A stretch of 48,467 bases of DNA from an uncultured Bacilli bacterium (GCA_947629075.1 CANRCI010000001.1:1-48467), one strand, 5' to 3'. Numbered from the stretch's first letter, positions 3,154 to 48,467 are shown. A program made the numbers and translations. Notes: generated from the letters alone by a model not told the origin.

Positions 3154-3723
3154 ATGATAAACAGAGAAGATGGTTTTACCCTTATTGAACTTATGGCAGT
3201 TGTAATTATTTTAGGTATTCTTATGTTGATTGCTGTTCCAAATACAACAGCTATTCTTGAAAAGAATAAAAAAGATGCAATGATCGAAGATGCTAAAAAA
3301 TTAATTGCTTTAGCTCAATATCAAGTTAAGAAGGATAAAAATATTGAATTGCCAGAAACAGCAGATGAAGCAATAGTAATTACTCTTCAATATATGAATA
3401 CTGATAATTTGAATAAAACTAATTATTCTACTTATTATATAAAAGATAGAACTTTCGTGGCAATTAAGAAAAATGGAGATAAATATATCTATTATGCCAA
3501 TTTAGTATCTTGTAATACTGATACTTGTAATGATGAAAAATATGGAATCAATCTCGCTACTGAAGAACAATTGAGATCTGATGCCAGATTTGATTTAGTT
3601 AAAAATACTGAACAATTACAAGATTTTTTGATCAAAGCTAATACGAGTGGTGGCTATGAAATAAGTACGGTTTTAACTAGTCCATCAGGAGTTTTAAAAG
3701 CTACTAGAATAGATGTTTATTAG
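3154..3723 (+). CDS. Type IV pilin / pseudopilin (class III signal peptide), divergent from the tandem copies
   Basis: MINREDG|FTLIELMAVVIILGIL: short basic leader, Gly-1, Phe+1, Glu+5, hydrophobic helix. Cys pair at SCNTDTC. Confidence 0.8.
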   Translation: MINREDGFTLIELMAVVIILGILMLIAVPNTTAILEKNKKDAMIEDAKKLIALAQYQVKKDKNIELPETADEAIVITLQYMNTDNLNKTNYSTYYIKDRTFVAIKKNGDKYIYYANLVSCNTDTCNDEKYGINLATEEQLRSDARFDLVKNTEQLQDFLIKANTSGGYEISTVLTSPSGVLKATRIDVY

Positions 3724-3745
3724 AGAGTTTAACTCTCTTTTTTTT
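3722..3745 (+). terminator. Rho-independent terminator
   Basis: AGAGAG / CTCTCT stem followed by a T7 tract. Confidence 0.65.
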
Positions 3746-3782
3746 CTTTAATGTAAATTTAAAAAAATTAAATTGATAAATA

Positions 3783-3811
3783 TTGACTGTGAATTTTGGG
3801 TATGCTAATAT
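3783..3811 (+). promoter_or_regulatory. Sigma-A-type promoter of the pilin array
   Basis: TTGACT (3783-3788), 17-nt spacer, TAATAT (3806-3811). It lies inside the ORF-track N-terminal extension of copy 1. Confidence 0.5.
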
Positions 3812-3842
3812 AAAATTATATGATAGGAAGGAAAGTGAAGGT

Positions 3843-4427
3843 ATGAGGAAGAATCAAAAAGGGTTTACATTGATCGAGTTGCTAGCTGTTATCATCATTT
3901 TAGGACTTTTAATGGCAATCGCAATTCCAAGTGTAACTCGTTATATTACACAATCAAGAAAGAAGACATTAGTTAATTCAATCGACAGTTTCATTTCCGC
4001 TGTAACAACAGCCGTAAATGAGCAAGAATTTGGAGCATTATCTAACCAAGAAAACATTTACTTTATACCGGTTTCAAATGATTCATCAAAGAGTTGCATC
4101 GAATTAGAAAAAGGTGGAACAGATCCGTTTGGAGTTTGGCAAGAAGCATATGTTGCAGTTCACTATGATGCAGAAAAGTTCAGTTATGATTACTATTTCA
4201 CATTCTATGATGATGCGGGATATGGTATGAGTTTAACTAAGAGTGATGATATAGCTACGAGTGGTAGTGATATCAAAAACCCAAGTCCAGTAAAGAGCGG
4301 TACAATCGTTAAGAATACAGTAGGGGCTAAAAAGCCTAAAGTAGGTGCAGCAGCTGCTGAAAACGCTACTCCTATGAAAATTCCTGTTGGTAATTGTAAA
4401 GTAGCTAATGCAACACCTGCTACTTAA
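3843..4427 (+). CDS. Type IV pilin, tandem paralog 1 (194 aa)
   Basis: MRKNQKG|FTLIELLAVIIILGLL class III signal peptide. Cys85 and Cys185 could form a D-region disulfide. ATG3843 follows a GAAGG SD. Confidence 0.85.
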   Translation: MRKNQKGFTLIELLAVIIILGLLMAIAIPSVTRYITQSRKKTLVNSIDSFISAVTTAVNEQEFGALSNQENIYFIPVSNDSSKSCIELEKGGTDPFGVWQEAYVAVHYDAEKFSYDYYFTFYDDAGYGMSLTKSDDIATSGSDIKNPSPVKSGTIVKNTVGAKKPKVGAAAAENATPMKIPVGNCKVANATPAT

Positions 4428-4469
4428 TAAATAGTTAGTTTGTAATAAAAAAATTATTTGGAGGTCAAA

Positions 4470-5060
4470 GTGAGAAAGAATCAAAAAGGATTTACTTTAA
4501 TCGAATTGCTTGCCGTTATCATTATCTTAGGACTTTTAATGGCAATCGCAATTCCAAGTGTAACAAGATACATTACACAATCAAGAAAGAAAACGTTGGT
4601 TAATTCAATCGATAGTTTCATTTCTGCTGTAACAACAGCTGTAAATGAACAAGAATTCGGTGCATTGTCTAACCAAGAAAATATTTACTTTATACCAGTT
4701 TCAAACGACTCAGCAAAAAGTTGTGTTGAACTAGAAAAAGGTGGAACTGATCCATTCGGAGCTTGGAAAGAGGCTTACGTAGCAGTTCACTATGATGCCG
4801 ATAAATTCAGTTACGATTATTATTTTACATTCTATGATGATGCTGGATATGGAATGCAATTGACTAAGAGTGACGATATAGCTACAAGTGGTAGTGATAT
4901 CAAAAATCCAAGTCCTGTTAAAAATGCAGATATCATAAAAAATACTGTAGGAGCTAAAAAATCCAGTGTAGCAAGTGCAGCAGATGCTAATCCGTTAGTA
5001 CTATCTACTACTGATTGCAAAGCTTCAACTGCTAAAGCTGGACCAGTAACAGTTAGTTAA
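4470..5060 (+). CDS. Type IV pilin, tandem paralog 2 (196 aa, GTG start)
   Basis: Same N-terminal 151 aa as the other copies with a few substitutions. GGAGG SD 5 nt upstream of GTG4470; the TTG4458 of the ORF track sits in the SD. Confidence 0.85.
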   Translation: MRKNQKGFTLIELLAVIIILGLLMAIAIPSVTRYITQSRKKTLVNSIDSFISAVTTAVNEQEFGALSNQENIYFIPVSNDSAKSCVELEKGGTDPFGAWKEAYVAVHYDADKFSYDYYFTFYDDAGYGMQLTKSDDIATSGSDIKNPSPVKNADIIKNTVGAKKSSVASAADANPLVLSTTDCKASTAKAGPVTVS

Positions 5061-5094
5061 TATTTGATAAAAAATAAATTATTTGGAGGTTAAA

Positions 5095-5685
5095 ATGAGA
5101 AAGAACCAGAAAGGTTTTACTTTAATTGAGTTGCTAGCCGTTATTATCATTTTAGGACTTTTAATGGCGATTGCAATTCCTAGTGTAACGAGATACATTA
5201 CACAATCAAGAAAAAAGACATTGGTTAATTCAATCGATAGTTTCATTTCTGCAGTAACGACAGCAGTAAATGAACAAGAGTTCGGTGCATTATCTAATCA
5301 AGAGAAAATTTACTTTATACCGGTTTCAAATGATTCAACGAAGAGTTGTGTTGAATTAGAAAAAGGTGGAACAGATCCATTTGGAGTTTGGCAAGAAGCA
5401 TATGTAGCAGTTCACTATGATGCCGATAAATTCAGTTATGATTATTATTTCACATTCTTTGATGACGCTGGATATGGTATGAAATTGACTAAGAGTGATG
5501 ATATTGCTACAAGTGGTAGTGATATCAAAAACCCAAGTCCAGTTAAACATGCTGATATTATTTCAAACACTGTAAGTGCCAAAAAAACTAGTAAGGCAGA
5601 TGCAGCTAATGCTGATGCGGTAGTACTATCTGCTAAAGATTGTAAAGCTGCAACTGCTACAAGCGGGCCAGCAGCAACTAGCTAA
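5095..5685 (+). CDS. Type IV pilin, tandem paralog 3 (196 aa)
   Basis: As above; ATG5095 follows GGAGG. Confidence 0.85.
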   Translation: MRKNQKGFTLIELLAVIIILGLLMAIAIPSVTRYITQSRKKTLVNSIDSFISAVTTAVNEQEFGALSNQEKIYFIPVSNDSTKSCVELEKGGTDPFGVWQEAYVAVHYDADKFSYDYYFTFFDDAGYGMKLTKSDDIATSGSDIKNPSPVKHADIISNTVSAKKTSKADAANADAVVLSAKDCKAATATSGPAATS

Positions 5686-5719
5686 TATTTGATAAAAAAT
5701 AAATTATTTGGAGGTTAAA

Positions 5720-6289
5720 ATGAGAAAGAATCAAAAAGGATTTACATTAATTGAGTTGCTTGCTGTTATCATTATTTTAGGACTTTTAATGGCAATCGCA
5801 ATTCCAAGTGTAACAAGATACATTACACAATCAAGAAAGAAAACGTTAGTTAATTCAATTGATAGTTTCATTTCTGCAGTAACGACAGCAGTAAACGAAC
5901 AAGAGTTCGGTGCATTATCTAATCAAGCCAATATTTACTTTATACCAGTTTCAAATGACTCATCAAAAAGTTGTGTTGAACTAGAAAAAGGTGGAACTGA
6001 TCCATTCGGAGTTTGGCAAAAAGCATATGTAGCAGTTCACTATGATGCCGACAAATTCAGCTACGATTATTATTTCACATTCTATGACGATGCAGGATAT
6101 GGTATGCAATTGACTAAGAGCGATGATATAGCTACAAGTGGTAGTGATATCAAGAACCCAAGTCCAGTAAAAGCTGATAATATTGTTACAAATAGTGTAA
6201 ATGCTAAGGCAAGTAGCGCACCTGGTGCTGCCAATGCTACTGCTAAAGAGATTACTGTTGCAGGTAATTGTAAAGTAAGTGCATCTTAA
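5720..6289 (+). CDS. Type IV pilin, tandem paralog 4 (189 aa)
   Basis: As above; ATG5720 follows GGAGG. Confidence 0.85.
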   Translation: MRKNQKGFTLIELLAVIIILGLLMAIAIPSVTRYITQSRKKTLVNSIDSFISAVTTAVNEQEFGALSNQANIYFIPVSNDSSKSCVELEKGGTDPFGVWQKAYVAVHYDADKFSYDYYFTFYDDAGYGMQLTKSDDIATSGSDIKNPSPVKADNIVTNSVNAKASSAPGAANATAKEITVAGNCKVSAS

Positions 6290-33318: not shown

Positions 33319-34749
33319 ATGAATAGTTGGTTTGATCGTTTTAAAGATTTCTTCAAAAACAAATATGTTCTTATATCATTTATTGTCTTAGTATTGTCTT
33401 TTTTTCTTGTATTTTTAGTATATGTAGTGTTTGTTCCTAAAATTATTATTAACGGTAAAGAAAAAGTTGTGTTGCAGTATAATGACAAGTATAGTGAAAA
33501 TGGAGCTTATGTACTAGGTGATGATGATGGGGTTGAAATAGAGGGTAAGGTCGATACTAGTAAGATTGGTGAGTACGAGGTTGTATATAAATATAAAAAG
33601 TTTGGTATTACTTTTACTAAAAAGAGAATTGTCGAGGTCAAAGATGAAAAAGGACCGGATTTAGTTTTAACGGGTGAAGATGAAGTTAATGTCTGCCCTA
33701 ATAGGGATTACGAAGAAGAGGGTTACAAATCAGTTGATGAGTATGATGGCGACATTACTGATCAAGTGGTAGTAAATAGAGAAGATGACCAAATAACTTA
33801 TATCTCTACTGACAAGAGTGGTAATAAGACGACAGTCTTTAGAAAAATAGTTAAAGAAGATAATGTTAAGCCGGTTATAACCCTTAAGGGAAATAGTGTC
33901 ATGTACGTTGTTGTCGGTAGTAAATTTACTGATCCATCTGTCAAAGTAGTCGATAATTGTGATAGCAATTTGGAAGAGAAGGTCGTAACTGAAGGAAATG
34001 TTGACATTAATAAAGTTGGAAAGTATACTATTAAATATAAGGTAATTGATAGTAGTAACAACACATCAGAAGTAACTAGAGTTGTCAATGTCGTGAATAA
34101 AAATACGACCAATTCTAGTAGAGGAATACCTGGTGTTATCTATTTGACATTTGATGATGGACCTAATAGTGGAACGACTAATGTCATTTTGGATATCTTA
34201 AAAGAAGAAGGAGTAAAAGCTACTTTCTTTGTAACGATGCGAGGACCTGATTCTTTGATTAAAAGGGAATTTGATGAAGGTCATACAGTTGCATTACATA
34301 CGGCATCGCACAATTATAAGACGGTTTATACATCAGTTGATGGATATTTCAAAGACTTGAATAAAGTATCTAATCGTGTGGAAAAGATCACAGGAGTTAA
34401 ATCTATGATAATTAGATTCCCTGGAGGAAGTAGTAACACAGTAAGTAGACATTATAATATTGGAATAATGACGACACTTACGAGCGAGGTACTAAATCGT
34501 GGTTATCGTTATTACGATTGGAACATTTCATCTGGTGATGCTGGTGAAACCAAAAACAAAGATAAAGTATACGCCAACGTTGTTAACAATTTAAGTAAGA
34601 AACGTGCTAATGTGGTGTTAATGCACGATATAAAACCTTATACTCGAGATGCTCTTCGCAAAATAATTAAGTATGGTAAAGAAAATGGTTATACTTTTGA
34701 ACGCATTACGATGGATACACCTATGGTAACTCAAAGAGTTAATAATTAG
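33319..34749 (+). CDS. Membrane-anchored polysaccharide deacetylase (NodB domain) with two Ig-like (DUF5011-type) repeats
   Basis: TM anchor; two repeats ending ..GKYTIKYKVIDSSNN..; NodB motifs LTFDDGP, HTASH and RFPGG. Confidence 0.8.
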   Translation: MNSWFDRFKDFFKNKYVLISFIVLVLSFFLVFLVYVVFVPKIIINGKEKVVLQYNDKYSENGAYVLGDDDGVEIEGKVDTSKIGEYEVVYKYKKFGITFTKKRIVEVKDEKGPDLVLTGEDEVNVCPNRDYEEEGYKSVDEYDGDITDQVVVNREDDQITYISTDKSGNKTTVFRKIVKEDNVKPVITLKGNSVMYVVVGSKFTDPSVKVVDNCDSNLEEKVVTEGNVDINKVGKYTIKYKVIDSSNNTSEVTRVVNVVNKNTTNSSRGIPGVIYLTFDDGPNSGTTNVILDILKEEGVKATFFVTMRGPDSLIKREFDEGHTVALHTASHNYKTVYTSVDGYFKDLNKVSNRVEKITGVKSMIIRFPGGSSNTVSRHYNIGIMTTLTSEVLNRGYRYYDWNISSGDAGETKNKDKVYANVVNNLSKKRANVVLMHDIKPYTRDALRKIIKYGKENGYTFERITMDTPMVTQRVNN

Positions 34750-34758
34750 GAGGATTTT

Positions 34759-36423
34759 ATGAAAAATAGAATAAAGGGATTATTGGTATTAATAGGACTT
34801 TCGTTGTTAGTTTTAAGTCCTGTTGATGTAAGTGCTGCCCAAAATACGAGTTTACTTCCAGCTAGTGGAAAAAATGTCGCATCTCCTGGTGATGAAATAA
34901 GTTATGTGATCACCCTTAGTAGTACTGACACAATAATCAGTTATAGAGCTAGTTTAGAGTATGACTCTTCAATATTACGACTAGTCAGTATAAGTAATGG
35001 TAGTGGATGGAGTGGTCAAAACAGCATATCTAGTCGTGATCTTTCATTTACTACAAATGGGGTTAGTGGTCAGAGCAATGTTGCTACTCTAAAGTTTAAG
35101 GTTGCAACTAACACTAGTAAAAAAAGCACCATCATTAGGTTAAACGGGGTTAATGTATGTGCCAAAGAAAGTAATACGCCGACTACTCCGGAGACGACTC
35201 CTACTACGCCAACTGATCCTGCAACTGCTGCATGTTCCAATATTACCACGTCACCAAAAACCTTAAACATTCAATCTAGCGATAATCAGTTATCGGCTTT
35301 AAAAGTAAATGGTAAGAGTGTATCTAACTTTTCCAAGAACAATTACGAATATGCGATGAGTGTTGAATCCAGTGTTGAGAAAGCTGTCATTAAAGCTACG
35401 ACTAATGATAGTTCTGCTAGTTTTGTCGATGGTTTTGGAAATAGAACCGTTGATCTTGAATACGGTGAAAACAAAATTGAAGTTCGTGTCAAATCAGAAC
35501 GAGGAGATCAACAAGTATATACGATTAGAATTAACCGTGAAGATGACCGAACTACTGAAAACCATTTGGAAGAAATAGTAATTGGTGATAAAAAAATAGA
35601 GAAGTTCGATAAAGATACTTTAAGTTACTATGTCAAAGTATATAAACAAGATAAAATTACAATTACAGCCTTGACGGTAGATGAAAAGGCTACTTATAAA
35701 GTTGATGGACCAACGACTTTGAAAATTGGTGAAAACGAATTTAAAATTACTGTAACTAGTGAAGCCGGAGAAGATTTAATCTATACCGTTACCGTTGATA
35801 ATATCGATAGTGAGATCAGTAAAAAGCTAAAATCTTTATCGATTAGTGGTTATGATATCGAATTTGATAAAAATAATCAGCGATATGAGATTTTGTATAA
35901 TAAAGATTTAATAAAGAAACTAAAGATTTATTTTACAACTGAAGCTAAAAGTGATGAAGTTACTGTTACAGTTACTCCTGATTTAGACGATAAAGAAGCT
36001 CTAGCTAAACTTAAAGCTGGAGATGAGATAGTTATTACTATTGAAGGTATTGATGGTGAAAAAGAAGAGTACGTAATAGTTTTAAAGAAAGATAAACGAA
36101 TTAATTTCTTCTTTGTTGTCGAATTAATAATCTTAATCGGTTTAATCGCTGCTATAACAGTAGTAGTTATCAAACGTAAGAAAGATAAAAATAACCCTAC
36201 AAAGAAAGAAAAGACAAAAAAAGAAAATGATAATGATGACGATGATTCAGTTGTAATTGCTAAACATGGTAAAACTGCAAGTAGTCGTGTTGAGCGTTAT
36301 GATGAAGAAAAACCTAAAAAGAAAAAGAGATTTTCCATCTATGAAGATGAATATGAAGAAGTAGAAATTGAAGTAGATGATGAAGATGAAGAAGAAATAG
36401 GTCAAACTAAAGAGTATAAATGA
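34759..36423 (+). CDS. Surface protein: signal peptide, cohesin-like domain, Thr/Pro linker, three cadherin-like beta-sandwich repeats, C-terminal TM and charged tail
   Basis: Signal peptide ..VDVSAAQN; TPTTPETTPTTPTDP linker; three repeats of type L..L.V.G..V..F....Y.Y...V...; TM FFFVVELIILIGLIAAITVVVI; K/D/E-rich tail. Confidence 0.65.
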   Translation: MKNRIKGLLVLIGLSLLVLSPVDVSAAQNTSLLPASGKNVASPGDEISYVITLSSTDTIISYRASLEYDSSILRLVSISNGSGWSGQNSISSRDLSFTTNGVSGQSNVATLKFKVATNTSKKSTIIRLNGVNVCAKESNTPTTPETTPTTPTDPATAACSNITTSPKTLNIQSSDNQLSALKVNGKSVSNFSKNNYEYAMSVESSVEKAVIKATTNDSSASFVDGFGNRTVDLEYGENKIEVRVKSERGDQQVYTIRINREDDRTTENHLEEIVIGDKKIEKFDKDTLSYYVKVYKQDKITITALTVDEKATYKVDGPTTLKIGENEFKITVTSEAGEDLIYTVTVDNIDSEISKKLKSLSISGYDIEFDKNNQRYEILYNKDLIKKLKIYFTTEAKSDEVTVTVTPDLDDKEALAKLKAGDEIVITIEGIDGEKEEYVIVLKKDKRINFFFVVELIILIGLIAAITVVVIKRKKDKNNPTKKEKTKKENDNDDDDSVVIAKHGKTASSRVERYDEEKPKKKKRFSIYEDEYEEVEIEVDDEDEEEIGQTKEYK

Positions 36424-38818: not shown

Positions 38819-40426
38819 ATGGTTTATTTTGTTTATTTATTTGCTATTTTTTATGCCTTTTACATTACTAAACGAAGTTTTCACATGTTACAGGAAAACT
38901 TGTACAATGAGAACAATCGTTATTTGAAGTGGGTTAAAAACAATTTCAAAGATGTCATTACCAATTATGCTTGGTTTTCTTTCTTTTTTGTACTTTTAAC
39001 TTATTTTACCCCTAATATCTATATTATTTATTTTTTATTAGCTTGTAGCATTATTTCTTGTTTCGGTGCGGTTAGTCAAGAGAGAGAAAAGAGAAATCAG
39101 AGTCAAAATAAAAAGCCTCTTGTCATTACTAAACGTATAAAAAGACTTTATGTAACGACGGGAATAATCTATTTTTTACCACTCTTAATTGCGGTCATTT
39201 TTAGAAATCTACGCTATACGATGTTGTTGATTACGACTTTTCTTTGTGCGCTTAACTATTTAGTAGTATACATTTCTATGTTAATCAATTATCCAATTGA
39301 AATGAGTATTAATTATTCATATCGTAGAAAAGCGATGAAAAAACTTAAAAGTATGCCGGATTTGAAAGTAATTGGCATTACGGGAAGTTATGGTAAGACT
39401 AGTTGTAAAAATATTTTAGCAGACATTTTAAATATAAAGTATAATTGTCTTCCAACTCCCAAAAGTATCAATACTGTAGTAGGTCTCATCATGACAATCA
39501 ACAATCAACTTAGTAAATTTGATGATATCTTTGTAGCGGAGATGGGTGCTTATGTCGTGGGAGAAATCCACCGCTTATGTAAGTTGGTCAATCCTAAATA
39601 CGGAATTATCACGAGTATTGGAACAGCTCACTTGGAGACTTTCGGTAGCGAAGAGAATATTCAACATGGTAAGATGGAGTTAATCGAATATCTACCTAGT
39701 GATGGTGTCGGTGTTTTAAACCGCGATGATCCTAAACAGAGAGATTACGAATTAAAAAATGATTGTAAAATATTATGGATTGGTATCGAATCAGAAGATG
39801 TCGATGTCAGAGCAATAGATATCAAGTGCGATTCTAAAGGTACCAGTTTTAAATGTGTATTTAAAGGTGATAAGAAAAAGTATTCGTTTACAACTAAGTT
39901 ACTTGGTCGCCACAACGTCTATAACATTTTATCTGCTCTAGCTCTAGGATATGAATTGGGAATTAGTCCTGAAGAGTTAATCAGAGCTGTAAAAAGAGTA
40001 AAACCAATTCCTAATAGATTGGAATTAAAAAAGATGTATGGCTTTAATTACATTGCTGATGATTACAATTCTAATCCCGTTGGGGCCAAGAGTGCTTTAG
40101 ATGTATTGGCGATGATGGACGGATACCGAGTAGTAGTTACTCCAGGAATGGTTGAGTTAGGTGAAAAACAAGATTATTACAATAAAGAATTTGGTAGTAA
40201 TATTGCCGACATTAAGCCTGATCTAGTAATTTTAGTTGGCAGTGAAAATACCAAAGCAATTCATAAGGGATTAATTGAAAATGGCTATAAAGAAAAAAAT
40301 ATTCAAGTTATCGAAAGAGTAACTGAGGCCTTTCAAATTATAAATGGTATAAAGACTAAAAAAGAAATATATGCACTGTTCGAAAACGATTTAACTGATT
40401 CATATATAAAAGGAGGAAAAAAATGA
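38819..40426 (+). CDS. MurF-like Mur ligase with an N-terminal polytopic membrane domain
   Basis: Residues ~1-160 carry 4-5 hydrophobic helices. Then GITGSYGKTS P-loop, AEMGA, TSIGTAHLE, GRHNVYN, DDYNSNP and GMVELG: typical MurF central and C-terminal domains. Confidence 0.7.
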   Translation: MVYFVYLFAIFYAFYITKRSFHMLQENLYNENNRYLKWVKNNFKDVITNYAWFSFFFVLLTYFTPNIYIIYFLLACSIISCFGAVSQEREKRNQSQNKKPLVITKRIKRLYVTTGIIYFLPLLIAVIFRNLRYTMLLITTFLCALNYLVVYISMLINYPIEMSINYSYRRKAMKKLKSMPDLKVIGITGSYGKTSCKNILADILNIKYNCLPTPKSINTVVGLIMTINNQLSKFDDIFVAEMGAYVVGEIHRLCKLVNPKYGIITSIGTAHLETFGSEENIQHGKMELIEYLPSDGVGVLNRDDPKQRDYELKNDCKILWIGIESEDVDVRAIDIKCDSKGTSFKCVFKGDKKKYSFTTKLLGRHNVYNILSALALGYELGISPEELIRAVKRVKPIPNRLELKKMYGFNYIADDYNSNPVGAKSALDVLAMMDGYRVVVTPGMVELGEKQDYYNKEFGSNIADIKPDLVILVGSENTKAIHKGLIENGYKEKNIQVIERVTEAFQIINGIKTKKEIYALFENDLTDSYIKGGKK

Positions 40427-41619: not shown

Positions 41620-41663
41620 GTTAAATTATTAGTAATTATTAACATTATTTGGGGGATGATATA

Positions 41664-42803
41664 ATGGATGATATTTTTAATTATTTAACCGATTTATTTG
41701 ATGATGTTCCAGTACCAGAAGTTAAGATTACTGTTGATCACGATTTAGATAAAGAGGAATTTGAAAATGTTAAAGAATTAATTTTATCAACCCCTGGTAT
41801 TACTGGTGTCGATTTTAAAGGAACAGTATCTGTTAATTTTATTGAACAAATTAAATGTCTTTTAGAGATTTCACCACTAGTAGATGATAAAAGTGTTGAA
41901 AAAATTGTTTTAGTAAATTTTAATCGTAAAGAATTAGAAAAACTGTTAAATTTAAATTATGTCAATCCTGAAACTTGGAGTATTGCTTATAAATATGAAG
42001 ATAATTCTTTTAAAGTAGCTCTTCTTCCCGAGGTGAGAAAGATCGAAGAATACATTTCTTTGATAAGTAGCAGTTTAAAGAAAAATTTAACTCCTTTAGA
42101 ACTGATAAAAGAGTTGTATGACTTTGTTAAACTGTTGGAACCTAAGGAAGAAGCATCTAATCTTCTTCAGGATATAATTAATACTCGTACTGCTAGTAGT
42201 TATGGATTTAGTTATTTACTACAGGAGTTGTTGGCGCGATTTAACATTCCTTCATATATTATTGATGTATCGCGTGATAAAAAATTATTTCATTCTCTAT
42301 TAGTTGAAATAAATGATGACAAATACCTAGCTTCAGGGATGTATCTTTTCGATCCTGAGAGTGATGCTGTACCAAAGCATTCTTATCGCAATGATCTAGC
42401 AAGGCATGTAAATTACAATTTTTTTGCTCTTAGCTGTGAAGAGGTTCAGCGACTAGTTTATGGTGATAAATTTGCAGGAATCATGGGAGCACTGATGATC
42501 AGTGATGAGGAGTTTGGCTTTAGAAAATATCGCAGGCGTAAAAACATTCGCGAAGTTACTAAGATAGAGAATACTTTCGATACTAATTATTTAGGCTTGA
42601 AAGAAAAAATAAACACAACTAAAAACATTCCTCAAGATATGAAAGTGAAATTGTTTACTAGTAATGTCAAAAAAGAACTGATCAAACTAAATAAAAATAT
42701 CGATGTAAAACATATTATTAAAGAGAATTATTTAGTTAAACGCCAAGAAATGTTTATAGAAGAGAAAAAAGAGATAGAACCGGTAGATATTTATGATATT
42801 TAA
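41664..42803 (+). CDS. Hypothetical protein, possible degenerate transglutaminase-like core
   Basis: ASSYGFSYLLQELLARFNIPSYIIDV .. HSLLVEI .. GMYLFDPESD parallels the Cys-His-Asp transglutaminase-like core, with Ser where the Cys would be. Confidence 0.35.
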   Translation: MDDIFNYLTDLFDDVPVPEVKITVDHDLDKEEFENVKELILSTPGITGVDFKGTVSVNFIEQIKCLLEISPLVDDKSVEKIVLVNFNRKELEKLLNLNYVNPETWSIAYKYEDNSFKVALLPEVRKIEEYISLISSSLKKNLTPLELIKELYDFVKLLEPKEEASNLLQDIINTRTASSYGFSYLLQELLARFNIPSYIIDVSRDKKLFHSLLVEINDDKYLASGMYLFDPESDAVPKHSYRNDLARHVNYNFFALSCEEVQRLVYGDKFAGIMGALMISDEEFGFRKYRRRKNIREVTKIENTFDTNYLGLKEKINTTKNIPQDMKVKLFTSNVKKELIKLNKNIDVKHIIKENYLVKRQEMFIEEKKEIEPVDIYDI

Positions 42804-42833: not shown

Positions 42834-42842
42834 TGGTATAAT
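42834..42842 (+). promoter_or_regulatory. Extended -10 promoter element upstream of the tad-like operon
   Basis: TGgTATAAT. It lies inside the ORF-track extension 42825..42869. Confidence 0.4.
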
Positions 42843-42869
42843 TTAATTATTAAAATAGGGGTGAAATTT

Positions 42870-43226
42870 ATGCCTAAAACTAATAGTAAAGGACAAGCTT
42901 TAGTAGAATTTTTACTTATCTTGCCAATTTTTCTGTTCATTCTTTTGGCAGTCGTAGATTTTGGCAGAATTTTTGTTACTAGAAGTAATTTGGAATCCCT
43001 TTCTAGTGAAGCAGTAAAGCTCTATGAAAAAGATAGTAATTATGATACCGTCAACAAAGAATTAAAAGAAATATCATCAGATGAGTTTGTTTTGTCTATT
43101 GACAAAAACGGTAATAAAGTTAAGATTGTCGTTCAACGTGATGTAAGCATTATGACACCTGGTTTACAACAAGTTTTAGGTAAAGTTTACAAAGCTAGTA
43201 GTGAAAGAGTGATTTTAGATGAATAA
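42870..43226 (+). CDS. TadE-like pseudopilin
   Basis: MPKTNSKG|QALVEFLLILPIFLFILLAVVDFGRIF: TadE N-terminal motif with Gly-1 and Glu+5. Confidence 0.75.
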   Translation: MPKTNSKGQALVEFLLILPIFLFILLAVVDFGRIFVTRSNLESLSSEAVKLYEKDSNYDTVNKELKEISSDEFVLSIDKNGNKVKIVVQRDVSIMTPGLQQVLGKVYKASSERVILDE

Positions 43227-44208
43227 TAATCGTGGACAGGCATTAGTATTATTTGTTCTTTTTCTACCAGTATTGATGCTCATCTTAGCGTGGTCAATAG
43301 ATACAGTTTACTTAAATTACGAGAAACAAAAATTAGATGGAATAACTACTTCAATTATGGAGAACTTAAAAAATTACCCAGGAGCCGATGAAAAAGTAAT
43401 CACTGAACTTTTTGAAGATAACGATCGCGATATTGAAGTTTTAAAAAGTAATGTTCAAAGCGATAAAATAAGTATTTCCTTAAAAAAAGAAATTCCCAGT
43501 TTATTTGGAAGAATTATAGGTTACAATACTTATTCATTAAAACTAGAAAAAGATTACGATTATGAAGCATTAGACAGCATTTACGCTCCAGTTAACAATG
43601 GCCTTTACTTACATTTTACAGGTATAGATGCGTTAAATGATGACAATGAATTAGTTGATCGAACTGGTATAAACAAAATCGATTATTTCAATTTAAGTTG
43701 GGATAAGAAAGACCATTATTATAGTTTTAATGGTAAGGATTCACGCATCACCAATAGTATCGATTTTGAAAACGCAACCAACTATTTTACTATTCAAATG
43801 TTGTTTAGAACCAAAGATGTTAACAATTACAATAAAGTCTTAGTTTTAGATTTTTACGATATAAAAGACCAAGTTTTAAAATTGACTTTTAGGATTAATA
43901 ATGGTGTTTTAGAAGTATATGACGATTCAGAAAAAATTGGTGAGACAAAAGTAAATCCAATTTCAAAATACTATGTTGAGATAACCAAGGATGACAATGG
44001 TCTAAACATATATTTAGATAATGAATTGTTAGTTAGAAAAGATATTGGTTTCACTTTAAAGTCAATCATTACTAATATCGGAATGGAGAAAGATGATAAT
44101 TCGTCATTTGATGGTGGTATATACACATATCGCATTTATAATAGACTTTTAACCGATGAAGAGAGAAGTAAAAACTATAGTAATGCTTTAAAAGAGTATA
44201 CATCTTAA
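43219..44208 (+). CDS. TadG/TadE-like N-terminal anchor fused to a LamG (concanavalin A-like lectin) domain
   Basis: MNNNRG|QALVLFVLFLPVLMLILAWSIDTVY. The C-terminus has the LamG hallmarks ..YYVEITKDDNGLNIYLDNELL.. and FDGGIYTYRIYNRLLTDEE. Confidence 0.7.
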   Translation: MNNNRGQALVLFVLFLPVLMLILAWSIDTVYLNYEKQKLDGITTSIMENLKNYPGADEKVITELFEDNDRDIEVLKSNVQSDKISISLKKEIPSLFGRIIGYNTYSLKLEKDYDYEALDSIYAPVNNGLYLHFTGIDALNDDNELVDRTGINKIDYFNLSWDKKDHYYSFNGKDSRITNSIDFENATNYFTIQMLFRTKDVNNYNKVLVLDFYDIKDQVLKLTFRINNGVLEVYDDSEKIGETKVNPISKYYVEITKDDNGLNIYLDNELLVRKDIGFTLKSIITNIGMEKDDNSSFDGGIYTYRIYNRLLTDEERSKNYSNALKEYTS

Positions 44209-44213
44209 ATATA

Positions 44214-44222
44214 TGATATAAT
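44214..44222 (+). promoter_or_regulatory. Possible internal extended -10 promoter before the ATPase genes
   Basis: TGaTATAAT in the 37-nt gap. Confidence 0.3.
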
Positions 44223-44245
44223 TATTAAGATAGATAGGTGATAAT

Positions 44246-45025
44246 ATGGAGATTAAAAAAGGGAAAATATTTACAATTACATCGATGAAAGGTGGCGTAG
44301 GAAAGACTACTTTCGTCATGAGTTTAGCTAAAATTTGTGAAGAAGAAAAATTGAAAGTACTAATTATGGATTTAGATTTTTATACTGGAAATGTTGCTTT
44401 TTCATTGAATGCTAAAACTAAAGGAAGTATCTATAACCTATGTGATGATATGGCCAATAATCGTATTAAATATGGTGTAACTGATGAATATATCCACAAG
44501 ATAAATGATTATATCGATATCGTATCCTCACCTAAAGATCCTAGAGATGTAACTAAGATAGATGATAAATACATCGATGCCATTCTTAACAATTTAGTAT
44601 ATAAATACGACGTAATTTTAATAGATACTAACCATGTACTAAATGAACATAAAATGGTCGCGTTTGATTTAAGTGATAAGATAATTGAAATACTTACCAA
44701 TGATGCTTTTGATTTACAAGGAAATAAAACTTTTATGGCAATATGTAAAAATATGAAAGTAGATAATGTTATCTTAGTCCTTAATAATTCGATTGATGAA
44801 CGAAAGAGATATTTTTCGATGTATGATATAAAAAATATTTTAGGTAGAAATGTCAATTATATTATTCCTACTAGTTTTTATTTAAAAAATTATCAACAGA
44901 TGGTTATGGATGGCGATATTTTGAATTTTAAGAACAAATTATCATCAGCTGGTAAAAAAGATTATTCTAAATTCAGAGAGAATATGAAAAAAATATTATT
45001 AGAGGGTGGTAAAGATGGCAAATAA
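44246..45025 (+). CDS. TadZ/CpaE-like ParA/MinD-family ATPase (no receiver-like domain)
   Basis: Deviant Walker A TSMKGGVGKTT and LIDT Walker B region. Positioned directly upstream of cpaF. Confidence 0.7.
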   Translation: MEIKKGKIFTITSMKGGVGKTTFVMSLAKICEEEKLKVLIMDLDFYTGNVAFSLNAKTKGSIYNLCDDMANNRIKYGVTDEYIHKINDYIDIVSSPKDPRDVTKIDDKYIDAILNNLVYKYDVILIDTNHVLNEHKMVAFDLSDKIIEILTNDAFDLQGNKTFMAICKNMKVDNVILVLNNSIDERKRYFSMYDIKNILGRNVNYIIPTSFYLKNYQQMVMDGDILNFKNKLSSAGKKDYSKFRENMKKILLEGGKDGK

Positions 45026-46445
45026 ATGGTTAGAAGAATTTAATTTCGTATCCCATGATAAAGAAGTAAGTTCTGAAAGTGTTCAAAGCGATTACGAAGT
45101 ATTTAAAGATAAAGAATTACTAGATAAATTTAGAACAGTTATCATTCAAGATTTAATAGATAATAGAATACCTGATGGTAAACTTCTTACACAATACATT
45201 AATGAAGAAATTGATAGAATTACTGATGGTTATGATTTAACTAATTTAGAGAGAAGTCATATCTTTAATTTGATCGAGAATGAAGTAAATGGTTATGGAC
45301 CTTTAACAGAACTTTTAGATGATAAAAATATTACGGAAATCATGGTCAATTCTGCTGATGAAATATATATTGAGGTCGATGGTCAATTGATTCGTGATGA
45401 AAGTGTATCGTTTATCAATGAAGAACATATCATTAGGACTATTCAAAGAATTATTCAACCGCTAGGTAGAACGATTGATTCAACTAATCCGATGGTCGAC
45501 TCTCGTCTGCCAGATGGTTCTAGAATTAATGCTGTCATTCCGCCACTTTCGGTTAAGGGACCAGTTGTTACTATTCGTAAATTTAAGGATAGTATGGATA
45601 ATATTGAGAACTTAATTGGTAATGGTAGTATGACTCCATATATGGCTAGATTTTTAAATGCTTGTGTCAATGCCAAGTTGAACATTTTAGTTTGTGGTGG
45701 TACTGGTAGTGGTAAGACGACCCTTCTAAATGTTTTATCCAACTTTATCGGTTCAGGAGAACGTATTATAACGATCGAGGATGCGGTAGAGTTAAGACTT
45801 CATCAGGAACACGTCATTCAACTGGAGACAAGAAATGTTAACTACGATAAAGAAGGAGAAGTTACAATTCGTGATTTAGTTCGTAACTCACTTCGTATGC
45901 GTCCGGATAGAATTATCGTCGGTGAAGTTCGTGGTAGTGAAGCTTTCGATATGTTACAAGCTATGAATACAGGACATGATGGAAGCTTGACAACGCTTCA
46001 TGCCAATGGACCAGCTGATGCTCTAGATAGACTTGAAACGATGATTTTGATGAGTGGAATAGAAATTCCCCTAAAGGCAATCCGTGGTTATATTGTCAAT
46101 GCTTTAGATATCGTTGTCAATGTCGAACGTCTAAGTGATGGTCGAAGAAAGGTAACTTCTATTTCTGAGATTACGGGATTTGATGGTGATGAAATAGGAT
46201 TGAAAGAAATATTTGCCTTTAATCAGAACGGTGTAACAGATAACAGAGAGGTTATCGGTGAATTTGTTCTATATCCATATATTCCAAAAGTATATAGTAA
46301 AATTAAAAGTCGCGGTGTCGATGATGTCGACGATATTTTTGAAGAATTACAAAAACAAATCGATGCTGAAAACAAAAAGAAAACTAAAGATGGAAAAAAG
46401 AAAGAGACTAAAAAAACGACCAAAAAGAAAAGTGTAAAAAAATAA
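45015..46445 (+). CDS. CpaF/TadA-family secretion ATPase with a polylysine C-terminal tail
   Basis: [12 protein letters not shown] Walker [18 protein letters not shown] and [13 protein letters not shown] motifs. The tail is [25 protein letters not shown]. Confidence 0.9.
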
Positions 46446-46461
46446 AAAAAGGAGGTAGACC

Positions 46462-47469
46462 ATGAATAGTGTTGGTGTGTATACAATTCAGATTCTTACA
46501 ATATTAACCCTTCTAGTAATTGTTTTTCGATTATTGAGATTGAATTCATCCCTTAGAATGGTTAGACGCTTTACTCCTTATACAGTAGAAGAATTAGAAG
46601 ATCGCGATGAGACGTTATTCGATTATCTATATCGAAGATATCAGGTGTATCGCAAAAAGATTTCTAAACAGTTCAAAAAGTCTAAATTGTTATTAGATTA
46701 CAGTAAAAAATATGAGAAGTATTGCGATAATAGTAAGATCATAAGAGATGAAGCAATGGACTACATTTCTGATAAATTTGTCGTCGGTTTTGTGGCGATG
46801 ATTGTCATTATGTTCTCTGACATATTTCAATATCAACCAATAACTTTTTTGCAGTTGTTGACATTTTATCTAATCGGATTTTTTATACCAGATTTGGTTT
46901 TAATATCTAAGAATAAAATTCGTGAGAAGTTAATTGAAAGAGATATGTTACACGCGATCATAATCATGAATAATGCTTTTAAATCAGGAATGAGCATTAT
47001 GCAAGGTATATATATGGTTTACAATGAGTTAGATGGGCCGATTAGTGATGAATTCAAAAAGATGTATATCGACATTACTTTTGGACTTAATATGGATACC
47101 GTATTTAAAAGATTTGCTGATCGCGTTAAGACAAAAGAAGCAAAATACATCACAACTTCACTTACGGTACTAAATAAGACTGGTGGTAATATAGTTCAAG
47201 TATTCTCATCAGTTGAAAGAAATTCGTTTACCCGTAAGAAACTACGTGAAGAATTAGGAGCTATTTCAGCATCTAGTGATGCCATTTTCAAGATGTTAGC
47301 AATTATCCCAATATTCTTAATCGGCATAATTTTGATGCTCAATCCGACATATTTTTCACCACTTTTCACAACTAGTGAAGGCTTACTAATCCTTGGCCTA
47401 TTAATCCTTATTTATGTCCTATACATATTTATAGTTAGAAAAGTTATGAAAGTAGAGGTTGATATTTAA
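46462..47469 (+). CDS. TadB-like type II secretion F-domain membrane protein
   Basis: N-terminal TM, T2SSF-like cytoplasmic domain (AFKSGMSIMQGI..), C-terminal TMs. Confidence 0.75.
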   Translation: MNSVGVYTIQILTILTLLVIVFRLLRLNSSLRMVRRFTPYTVEELEDRDETLFDYLYRRYQVYRKKISKQFKKSKLLLDYSKKYEKYCDNSKIIRDEAMDYISDKFVVGFVAMIVIMFSDIFQYQPITFLQLLTFYLIGFFIPDLVLISKNKIREKLIERDMLHAIIIMNNAFKSGMSIMQGIYMVYNELDGPISDEFKKMYIDITFGLNMDTVFKRFADRVKTKEAKYITTSLTVLNKTGGNIVQVFSSVERNSFTRKKLREELGAISASSDAIFKMLAIIPIFLIGIILMLNPTYFSPLFTTSEGLLILGLLILIYVLYIFIVRKVMKVEVDI

Positions 47470-48173
47470 TGAATAGAAATAATTCTCGACTTGCATATCG
47501 TATATATAGTAGGAAAGAAATAGAAAAATATCAGCGAAAAATCGATTTATTTGGCTATGGAAAGAGTTATGACGCAACTATTTTTCTAAATATTAGACTT
47601 CTTACTTCCGCTTTCTTGTTTTTTATGATATTATATATATTCGAGTTGGGATACGTCTTAGCACCTATTCTTACCGTTTTATATTATTATTTCTTTCCTT
47701 ATTTTGTAATTGATCGAAAATTACAGAAGAGAAGTGATAAATTAGATAATGATGCGATGTATTTCTTTGAAGTTATGACTCTATCAGTTGAAACTGGTAG
47801 AAATTTAAAAACAGCTTTAGAGCTTACAGCTAATACGGTCGATAGTGAATTATCTGATGAATTCAAACAAACGTTAAAAGAAGTAAGATATGGTAAAAGC
47901 TTAAATGAAGCTTTGGATGATTTGAAGAGAAGAATCCCATCTGATACAATTAATAATATTATTCTTAATATTTCACAGTCTAATATTTTTGGTAATAGCA
48001 TTATCGAGACGATGTATAATCAAATAGACTATATAAGAGATAGACAAATAATGAGAGCAAAAGCTAGTATTAGCAAGGTACCATTAAAAGTCTCAGTAAT
48101 TTCTGTACTTTTTTATATACCTTTAATAATGTTATTGATTTTATCGCCAGTAATAATAGAATATTTTAGTTAG
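47469..48173 (+). CDS. TadC-like type II secretion F-domain membrane protein
   Basis: T2SSF-like domain ([23 protein letters not shown]..) flanked by TMs. Start overlaps the tadB stop. Confidence 0.75.
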
Positions 48174-48183
48174 GAGGATTTTT

Positions 48184-48467
48184 ATGAGTGGGCATTCAAA
48201 ATGGGCAACTATTCATCGTAAGAAAGGGGCATTAGATGCTGAACGTGGTAAATTATTTCAAAAATTAGCAAAGGAAATATATGTAGCAGCCCGTGGTACT
48301 AATGGTAATATCGATGATAATCCAGGACTTAGAATGGTAGTAGAAAAGGCTAGAAGTAACAATATGCCTAAAGATAACATTAAAAAGGCAATTGATAAAG
48401 CAACGGGAGCTGGAAATGGTGAAGACTATGAATCTATTAGATATGAAGGTTATGGTCCTAATGGTGT
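48184..48467 (+). CDS. YebC/PmpR-family transcriptional regulator, N-terminal part (runs off the window)
   Basis: [32 protein letters not shown] is the canonical family N-terminus. Confidence 0.9.

Follow-up and report, generated by a model that had tools for sequence, protein, structure and literature searches.

Can a Tad-type pilus-assembly operon build a filament when it encodes neither an Flp major pilin nor a prepilin peptidase? This question is raised by a locus at positions 42870-48173 of a contig from the metagenome-assembled genome (MAG) of an uncultured gut Bacilli bacterium (GCA_947629075.1, CANRCI010000001.1). The stretch that we analyzed, hereafter the window, is the complete 48,467-bp contig. 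Judging from its genes and structure models, we put the chance at about even that the locus encodes a minimal Tad-type (type IVc) machine of the Flp-less class, functional and inherited vertically, that builds filaments in a monoderm, spore-forming Bacilli lineage. An adhesive Tad-type filament is its most likely function. The locus is not a new kind of system, and it does not overturn current views. A genomic catalogue of Flp-less Tad operons dates from 2011, and the question raised by this example is whether a TadE-like protein serves as the major filament subunit. To our knowledge, no Flp-less Tad system has been characterized experimentally.

Listing of the open reading frames (ORFs) and profile searches identified a six-gene Tad-type pilus-assembly operon in which all six ORFs were intact and catalytic motifs were present. 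The genes, all on the plus strand, encode in order a TadE-like prepilin (118 amino acids [aa]; 42870..43226; Pfam TadE PF07811, E = 3.5e-13), a second, modular pilin in which a TadE/F/G-like pilin is fused to a ConA/LamG-type module (329 aa; 43219..44208; weak TadF and Laminin_G_3 Pfam matches and an AlphaFold2 model), a ParA/MinD-type ATPase in the TadZ/CpaE position (259 aa; 44246..45025; Pfam AAA_31, CbiA, and ParA), a CpaF/TadA-type secretion ATPase (479 aa; 45006..46445; Pfam T2SSE, E = 1.9e-64), a TadB-like platform protein (335 aa; 46462..47469; one Pfam T2SSF domain, E = 1.8e-9), and a TadC-like platform protein (234 aa; 47469..48173; one T2SSF domain, E = 1.5e-16). Throughout the operon, neighboring genes were separated by no more than 37 nucleotides (nt) or overlapped, by 8 nt between tadE and the second pilin gene, 20 nt between tadZ and cpaF, and 1 nt between tadB and tadC. 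This order and tight packing had been described in a first-pass annotation of the window, and the Pfam matches and ORF listing agreed with it; the start that it gave for tadE (42834) was corrected to the ATG at 42870. A Shine-Dalgarno sequence, AGGGGTG (42857-42863, plus strand), read from the sequence, precedes this ATG, and further upstream we read by eye a perfect match to a putative extended -10 promoter element (TGGTATAAT; 42834..42842, plus strand). A generic promoter scan, which discriminates little in AT-rich DNA such as this contig, gave 48 sites against 41.9 expected.

The CpaF/TadA-type ATPase matched the Caulobacter CpaF structures in the PDB (8rkd, 8rjf, and 9e24) with an E-value of ~2e-103 and 350 bits, whereas the scores of archaeal GspE2, FlaI, and VirB11 were 142, 132, and 123 bits, respectively. 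No PilB or GspE chain appeared in the PDB search at E <= 1e-20. The best NCBIfam match was the TadA family TIGR03819 at 317 bits, which is below its equivalog cut-off of 373 bits. By these sequence comparisons the ATPase belongs firmly to the CpaF/TadA clade and not to PilB, GspE, ComGA, or FlaI, so that its placement in the first-pass annotation was upheld. The GTG start of cpaF gives the 479-aa protein, and an ATG at 45015 gives a 476-aa form, which is the one in the protein collection (P0004). The membrane platform is split, the T2SSF domain occurring once in each of the adjacent tadB and tadC genes, and the TadB-like position was conserved in all relatives examined. Separately, we observed that the ATPase ends in a Lys-rich C-terminal tail (aa ~445-479; 46338-46442), and that relatives of 455-463 aa are without this tail.

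The first-pass annotation had also stated that the locus carries no Flp pilin and no prepilin peptidase in cis. We scanned all six frames of the whole window for class III signal peptides, defined as G or A, four residues, E, and a hydrophobic stretch. The Flp motif was tightened, because a looser version falsely hit antisense ORFs, and was validated on positive-control loci; the criterion for A24 peptidases was the motif G-x-G-D-x-K in any frame. The control set consisted of 43 CpaF loci of other genomes, each with at least 19 kb captured. In agreement with the earlier statement, none of the six frames of the window contained an Flp-like ORF or the A24 motif, and the signal-peptide scan picked up the TadE-like protein, five type IV pilins, and nothing else. 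Among the control loci, a genuine Flp-like ORF (e.g., ...EEEGQGMVEYGLI...) was present within 10 kb in 31 of 43 and an A24-motif protein in 21 of 43, and nearly all Firmicute control loci carried Flp and the A24 motif alike. Neither was found in six loci of the window's lineage, nor in about 234 kb of lineage loci. Because the detectors succeeded in the controls and found nothing in the six lineage loci, the absence of Flp and TadV in cis is real and a trait of the lineage, and not a matter of chance or of failed detection. No domains of RcpC/CpaB, the RcpA secretin, or TadD occurred among the operon or flanking genes. A monoderm would not be expected to carry a secretin or TadD. RcpC, by comparison, is common in Gram-positive tad loci (PMC3244431).

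Such operons have a precedent. Imam et al. described in 2011 tad operons of Gram-positive bacteria in which a TadE-like gene is kept and Flp and Flp-like genes are missing, defined "no Flp" clades in the TadA tree, and proposed TadE-like proteins as the structural subunits of these operons (PMC3244431). With tadA, tadB, and tadC, no flp, and a TadE-like prepilin, the present locus belongs to this Flp-less Gram-positive class by gene content. The first-pass annotation had presented the operon as non-canonical; the gene set was as it described, but the surprise falls away, because Flp-less operons with TadE-like pilins were already in the literature. The locus shares with these operons a TadA-clade ATPase, TadB and TadC, a ParA ATPase in the TadZ position, a monoderm Firmicute host, and a TadE-like prepilin as the only obvious subunit. 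It differs from them in having no TadV and no RcpC/CpaB in cis, in a TadZ without a receiver domain, and in the lectin module on the second pilin. The last two are its uncommon features, whereas the Flp-less class itself is known. In common with the canonical Tad/Flp (type IVc) systems (Aggregatibacter tad, Caulobacter cpa, and Bifidobacterium breve tad), the locus has a CpaF/TadA motor, split TadB and TadC, a ParA-type TadZ/CpaE encoded ahead of the ATPase, and pilins of the TadE family with a G/xxxxEF site. Unlike them, it is without the Flp major pilin, TadV/CpaA, RcpC/CpaB, secretin, and TadD, and its pilin genes lie upstream of tadZ and not downstream of tadC.

The cassette was conserved in many related genomes. 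The named relatives are recorded as "MAG: Bacilli bacterium," and some proteins as "CpaF family protein [Bacilli bacterium]." The presence of SpoIIIAH, SpoVS, and GerM-type genes on the contig fits a spore-forming monoderm. Four independent close relatives (loci L082/83, L084/85, L090, and L091) shared the cassette order with the window: TadE (117-128 aa), a short TadG-like protein (about 107-129 aa), a bare TadZ (261-268 aa), CpaF, TadB, and TadC, with yebC ~10 nt downstream. Their upstream neighbors varied and included ddl with a 379-aa gene and four tandem secreted proteins, dnaE, a leucine-rich repeat protein, and others. In the window, the cassette is flanked by murF-like and ddl genes upstream and by yebC downstream. 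The first-pass annotation had held that the locus sits among core cell-wall genes and not in an island, and had proposed comparing this interval among relatives; in L082, L084, L090, and L091 the cassette and yebC were constant and the upstream side was variable, in line with that view. The same cassette with yebC beside differing upstream flanks indicates an old chromosomal feature of the lineage, and its retention in independent relatives argues for purifying selection on a working system.

The TadE-like protein begins with MPKTNSKG/QALVEF, a class III signal peptide in which E and F occupy positions +5 and +6, and thus carries the G/xxxxEF processing site of TadE/TadF-type pseudopilins. In the alignment of its orthologues from L082, L084, L090, L091, and the Alteribacillus locus L028, Q at +1, E at +5, F at +6, and P at +11 were invariant, and the cleavage residue was G or A. 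The gene was the first of the cassette in all close relatives examined, the position that flp holds in canonical operons. A PDB sequence search with the protein gave no match. We regard the TadE-like protein as a candidate polymerizing subunit.

The second pilin consists of a TadE/F/G-like pilin module (aa 1-114; 43219-43560), a linker, a ConA/LamG-type beta-sandwich (aa 129-307; 43603-44139), and a C-terminal helix. The Pfam TadF match to its N-terminus was weak (E = 0.0057), as was the PF13400 match of its L091 orthologue. The protein has a conserved G6/Q7 cleavage site and no E at +5, and in the family alignment G6-Q7, F12, and P17 were invariant, again with no glutamate at +5. The AlphaFold2 model (predicted local distance difference test score [pLDDT], 88.2) showed a 48-residue helix (residues 4-51), a small beta head, a linker, the beta-sandwich at 129-307, and the terminal helix. 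Foldseek matched this model to lectin and carbohydrate-binding jelly rolls, namely domain 4 of the arabinanase AbnA, a trans-sialidase lectin domain, the botulinum toxin Hc domain, and ERGIC-53, and also to the modular minor pilin PilC of S. sanguinis (7oa8/7oa7) over about 290-300 columns. As modeled, the second pilin would therefore be a modular type IV pilin, in which an independently folded module comes after the class III signal peptide and pilin alpha-1 helix. A HMMER search of 1.84 billion representatives found 386 relatives, nearly all of 100-130 aa and aligning to residues 1-110 only. The full architecture occurred in a single relative (P0002, 46% identity), and a few relatives of 260-355 aa carried other C-terminal extensions. 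The lectin-fused pilin is thus rare, and most members of the family are without the module. The gain of the lectin module in one lineage points to ongoing adaptive use.

The likeness to PilC of S. sanguinis (PDB 7OA7/7OA8) lies in a ConA-like lectin beta-sandwich grafted onto a short pilin moiety in a monoderm; the lectin module of PilC binds host glycans (PMC9934059). PilC, however, belongs to a type IVa pilus, has a glutamate at position 5 (E5), and carries an extra Ig (immunoglobulin)-like module, whereas the window pilin is of the TadE/F/G-like family and has neither E5 nor an Ig module. Because the sequence identity is only about 11-12%, the likeness reflects convergent domain grafting and not orthology. 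In other type IV filaments, the subunit without E5 is thought to enter first and to cap the tip, where modular pilins display their adhesive modules (PMC9934059). By analogy, the lectin pilin is predicted to be located at the filament tip and to act as a glycan adhesin.

The TadZ-like gene lies directly upstream of cpaF. In its product, a deviant Walker A motif, MKGGVGKT, begins at residue 15, and an N-terminal receiver-like domain is missing; the first-pass annotation had likewise described the protein as a bare ATPase domain. NCBIfam searches gave MinD/ParA matches and a weak match to TIGR03815 (CpaE_hom_Actino), confined to the C-terminal ATPase part of that model (110-253 of 340), and the best PDB match was the ParA-family ATPase 3ea0. 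The Walker A motif started at residues 15-18 in the window, L002, and L082-85 and at residue 27 in Alteribacillus L028, against residues 143-212 in 14 other Firmicute TadZ loci, which leaves room for an N-terminal receiver-like domain in the latter. An N-terminal atypical receiver domain (ARD) is reported for the structure of E. rectale TadZ. In L004 the motif was at residue 93, and the ORF of L004 begins 9 nt from the contig end. A bare TadZ is accordingly unusual but not unique, and the Alteribacillus locus does have Flp and TadV.

The truncation of TadZ relative to most Firmicute homologues and the lack of several canonical components could together suggest a decaying or silent Tad remnant that has lost flp, tadV, and rcpC and makes no filament. 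We consider this highly improbable. In addition to the six intact ORFs with their catalytic motifs, CpaF relatives at 75-80% identity formed more than 100 protein clusters in metagenomes, and the same six genes were found in every context examined. The cleavage-site residues were invariant, and one lineage has even gained a folded lectin module. A working system is supported because E5-F6 of TadE and G6-Q7 of the second pilin are invariant, the ORFs are intact, and the start signals are good.

How would such a machine work? Both pilin-like proteins of the operon keep the conserved G/Q cleavage site, at which a prepilin peptidase from outside the contig would cleave them. Such a peptidase is very likely encoded elsewhere in the genome, because seven prepilin-like genes with conserved cleavage sites, judged by sequence, lie on this one contig. 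The hexameric CpaF ATPase would power assembly through the split TadB/TadC membrane platform, and the receiver-less ParA-type TadZ may be an assembly or positioning factor. The ConA/LamG lectin pilin, having no E5, would enter first and remain at the tip, and the E5-bearing TadE-like protein would polymerize beneath it in the canonical role of Flp. The machine is predicted to make a short pilus or pseudopilus, which would take the lectin through the cell wall for glycan adhesion. With only six genes, the locus offers a stripped-down case; its position is conserved, and gut metagenomes contain many natural variants of it. If it can be expressed, it would provide a compact system for asking what a minimal Tad machine is and how one tip adhesin comes to be exchanged for another.

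Several observations weigh against this scheme. The single-sequence structure model of the TadE-like protein had a pLDDT of 57.7 and was too poor for use, and the Laminin_G_3 match of the second pilin (E = 5.6e-5), at 23.8 bits, fell below the cut-off of 27.6 bits. Neither the window nor the ~234 kb of lineage loci showed a peptidase, and processing is thus assumed. L002, the nearest species representative in the genome collection for the CpaF query (59% identity) and the nearest GTDB relative, has tadZ-cpaF-tadB-tadC and no pilin gene in the locus, which indicates that pilins can be supplied in trans in the wider group. In the Tad systems that have been studied, TadE and TadF are minor pilins beside a separate major pilin, which can be unlinked, as is KilP (PMC12075869).

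The L002 locus also speaks for a rival reading in which the major Flp pilin, and probably TadV, would be encoded at another locus and feed this machine, and the TadE-like protein and the lectin pilin would form only a priming or tip complex. TadE/F/G proteins are minor or tip pilins in characterized Tad systems, and it took a genome-wide search to find KilP (PMC12075869). One prepilin peptidase often serves several systems or is encoded apart from them (PMC6668835; PMC12075869), and the window is only one 48-kb MAG contig. The 48 kb of the window and the ~234 kb of lineage DNA without an Flp-like ORF, set against the frequency with which the other CpaF loci have one close by, tell against an unlinked Flp, as does the TadE-like gene, which holds the first position with a strong start signal. 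We regard an unlinked Flp as possible, although clearly less probable than the Flp-less machine.

The Myxococcus Kil system provides a view of such tip complexes; they consist of TadE/F/G homologues whose variable C-terminal domains are exposed, and these pilins are proposed to prime assembly and to give the pilus its specificity (PMC12075869). The TadE/F/G-like pilins are what the window locus has in common with these "Tips." Kil also shows promiscuous peptidase use and an unlinked major pilin. In contrast to the window, the Kil tips comprise at least three minor pilins, with Flp adapters and a major pilin of the Flp type besides, and occur in a diderm that has a secretin; the window locus has two pilin-like proteins only and no Flp.

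A further set of possible subunits lies at the other end of the contig. Five genes for type IV prepilins (3154..6289, plus strand), overlooked in the first-pass annotation, were identified by the motif scan (KG/FTLIEL) and by Pfam N_methyl. Four of them are tandem paralogs (3843-4427, 4470-5060, 5095-5685, and 5720-6289), which in the alignment were near-identical over the first ~150 residues, with a handful of substitutions, and diverged mainly in the last ~45. From the sequences, an exposed C-terminal region appears to have diversified here. The cluster was a syntenic orphan in relatives (L088), and homologous pilins occurred in three other contexts, never beside PilB, PilC, or PilD in the loci examined. 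Pilins are frequently encoded apart from biosynthetic genes (PMC3244431). We list the orphan type IV pilins as candidate in-trans substrates of the Tad machine.

In its strongest form, this idea makes CpaF/TadB/TadC the only type IV filament machinery of the lineage, polymerizing the orphan type IVa-like pilins while the TadE-like protein and the lectin pilin initiate the tip. If true, it would be a natural Tad/type IVa hybrid, with a filament made from a non-Flp major subunit. The orphan pilins are conserved in five different contexts and adjoin neither PilB/PilC/PilD nor ComGA/GB, a variable C-terminus is expected for exposed major subunits, and in relatives the pilin genes and the tad cassette are apparently on the same contigs (128,167 and 48,743 bp). 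On the other hand, our analysis covered only a small fraction of each genome, so that Pil or ComG machinery elsewhere is quite possible. Assembly of N_methyl type IVa-like pilins by a Tad motor has, as far as we know, no precedent. Moreover, related Erysipelotrichales have comG operons (PMC12786226), and orphan pilin genes are common in Firmicutes with ordinary Pil systems (PMC3244431). We consider such a hybrid unlikely, and the Flp-less machine with a TadE-like subunit remains our preferred reading.

Other proteins were observed near the orphan pilins or their relatives. Just upstream of spoVS and the pilin cluster, positions 1218-2150 encode a 310-aa membrane-anchored protein that is nearly all low-complexity sequence rich in Pro, Ala, Glu, and Val. 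In L086 (16647-20648), a 376-aa N_methyl protein lies between a sigma factor and two surface proteins, one with Ig-like and polysaccharide deacetylase domains and one that is cohesin/cadherin-like. The counterparts of both surface proteins are present in the window (33319-36423), and the large pilin is not.

Downstream of the operon, the window ends within the 5' part of yebC (48184..48467, plus strand; TACO1/YebC family, read from the sequence), which is not a pilus component. Its GGAGG Shine-Dalgarno sequence overlaps the tadC stop codon, and a 10-nt gap separates tadC from the yebC ATG (48171-48186). No terminator-like site was found in the tadC-yebC interval by a scan that has little discrimination in AT-rich DNA. 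Because the tight tadC-yebC junction is kept in every close relative despite the varying upstream flank, co-transcription of yebC with the pilus cassette is probable, although no functional reason for it is obvious.

On the upstream side, a 384-aa gene (41649-42803) lies between ddl and tadE, and its product had no Pfam, NCBIfam, or PDB match. A counterpart (379-382 aa) lies between ddl and the tad region in L084/L085. We rejected this gene as a component of the cassette, since its synteny extends only to L084/L085, and other genes stand at that position in L082, L090, and L091. In L084 (5906-8407) and also L085, four tandem genes for secreted proteins of 165-195 aa lie between the 379-aa gene and tadE. 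These proteins have TasA/camelysin-like motifs by eye (AxA/AF..TL and PGDS..N.G.L) and matched no Pfam family. They were considered as the missing pilins and rejected; their N-termini resemble Sec/SipW-type signals, their motifs are TasA/camelysin-like, and they are absent from the window. About 10 kb downstream of them in L084 are a type I signal peptidase (S26), a sortase, and a VWA protein.

In L002 (13123-14786), the cassette is followed by two genes (167 and 370 aa) without a Pfam match and then by ruvA/ruvB. Finally, in the murF-like Mur ligase of the window (38819-40426), a hydrophobic N-terminal region of ~170 residues, which appears to span the membrane several times, replaces the usual Mur ligase N-terminal domain, and the same architecture (533 aa) was found in L084.

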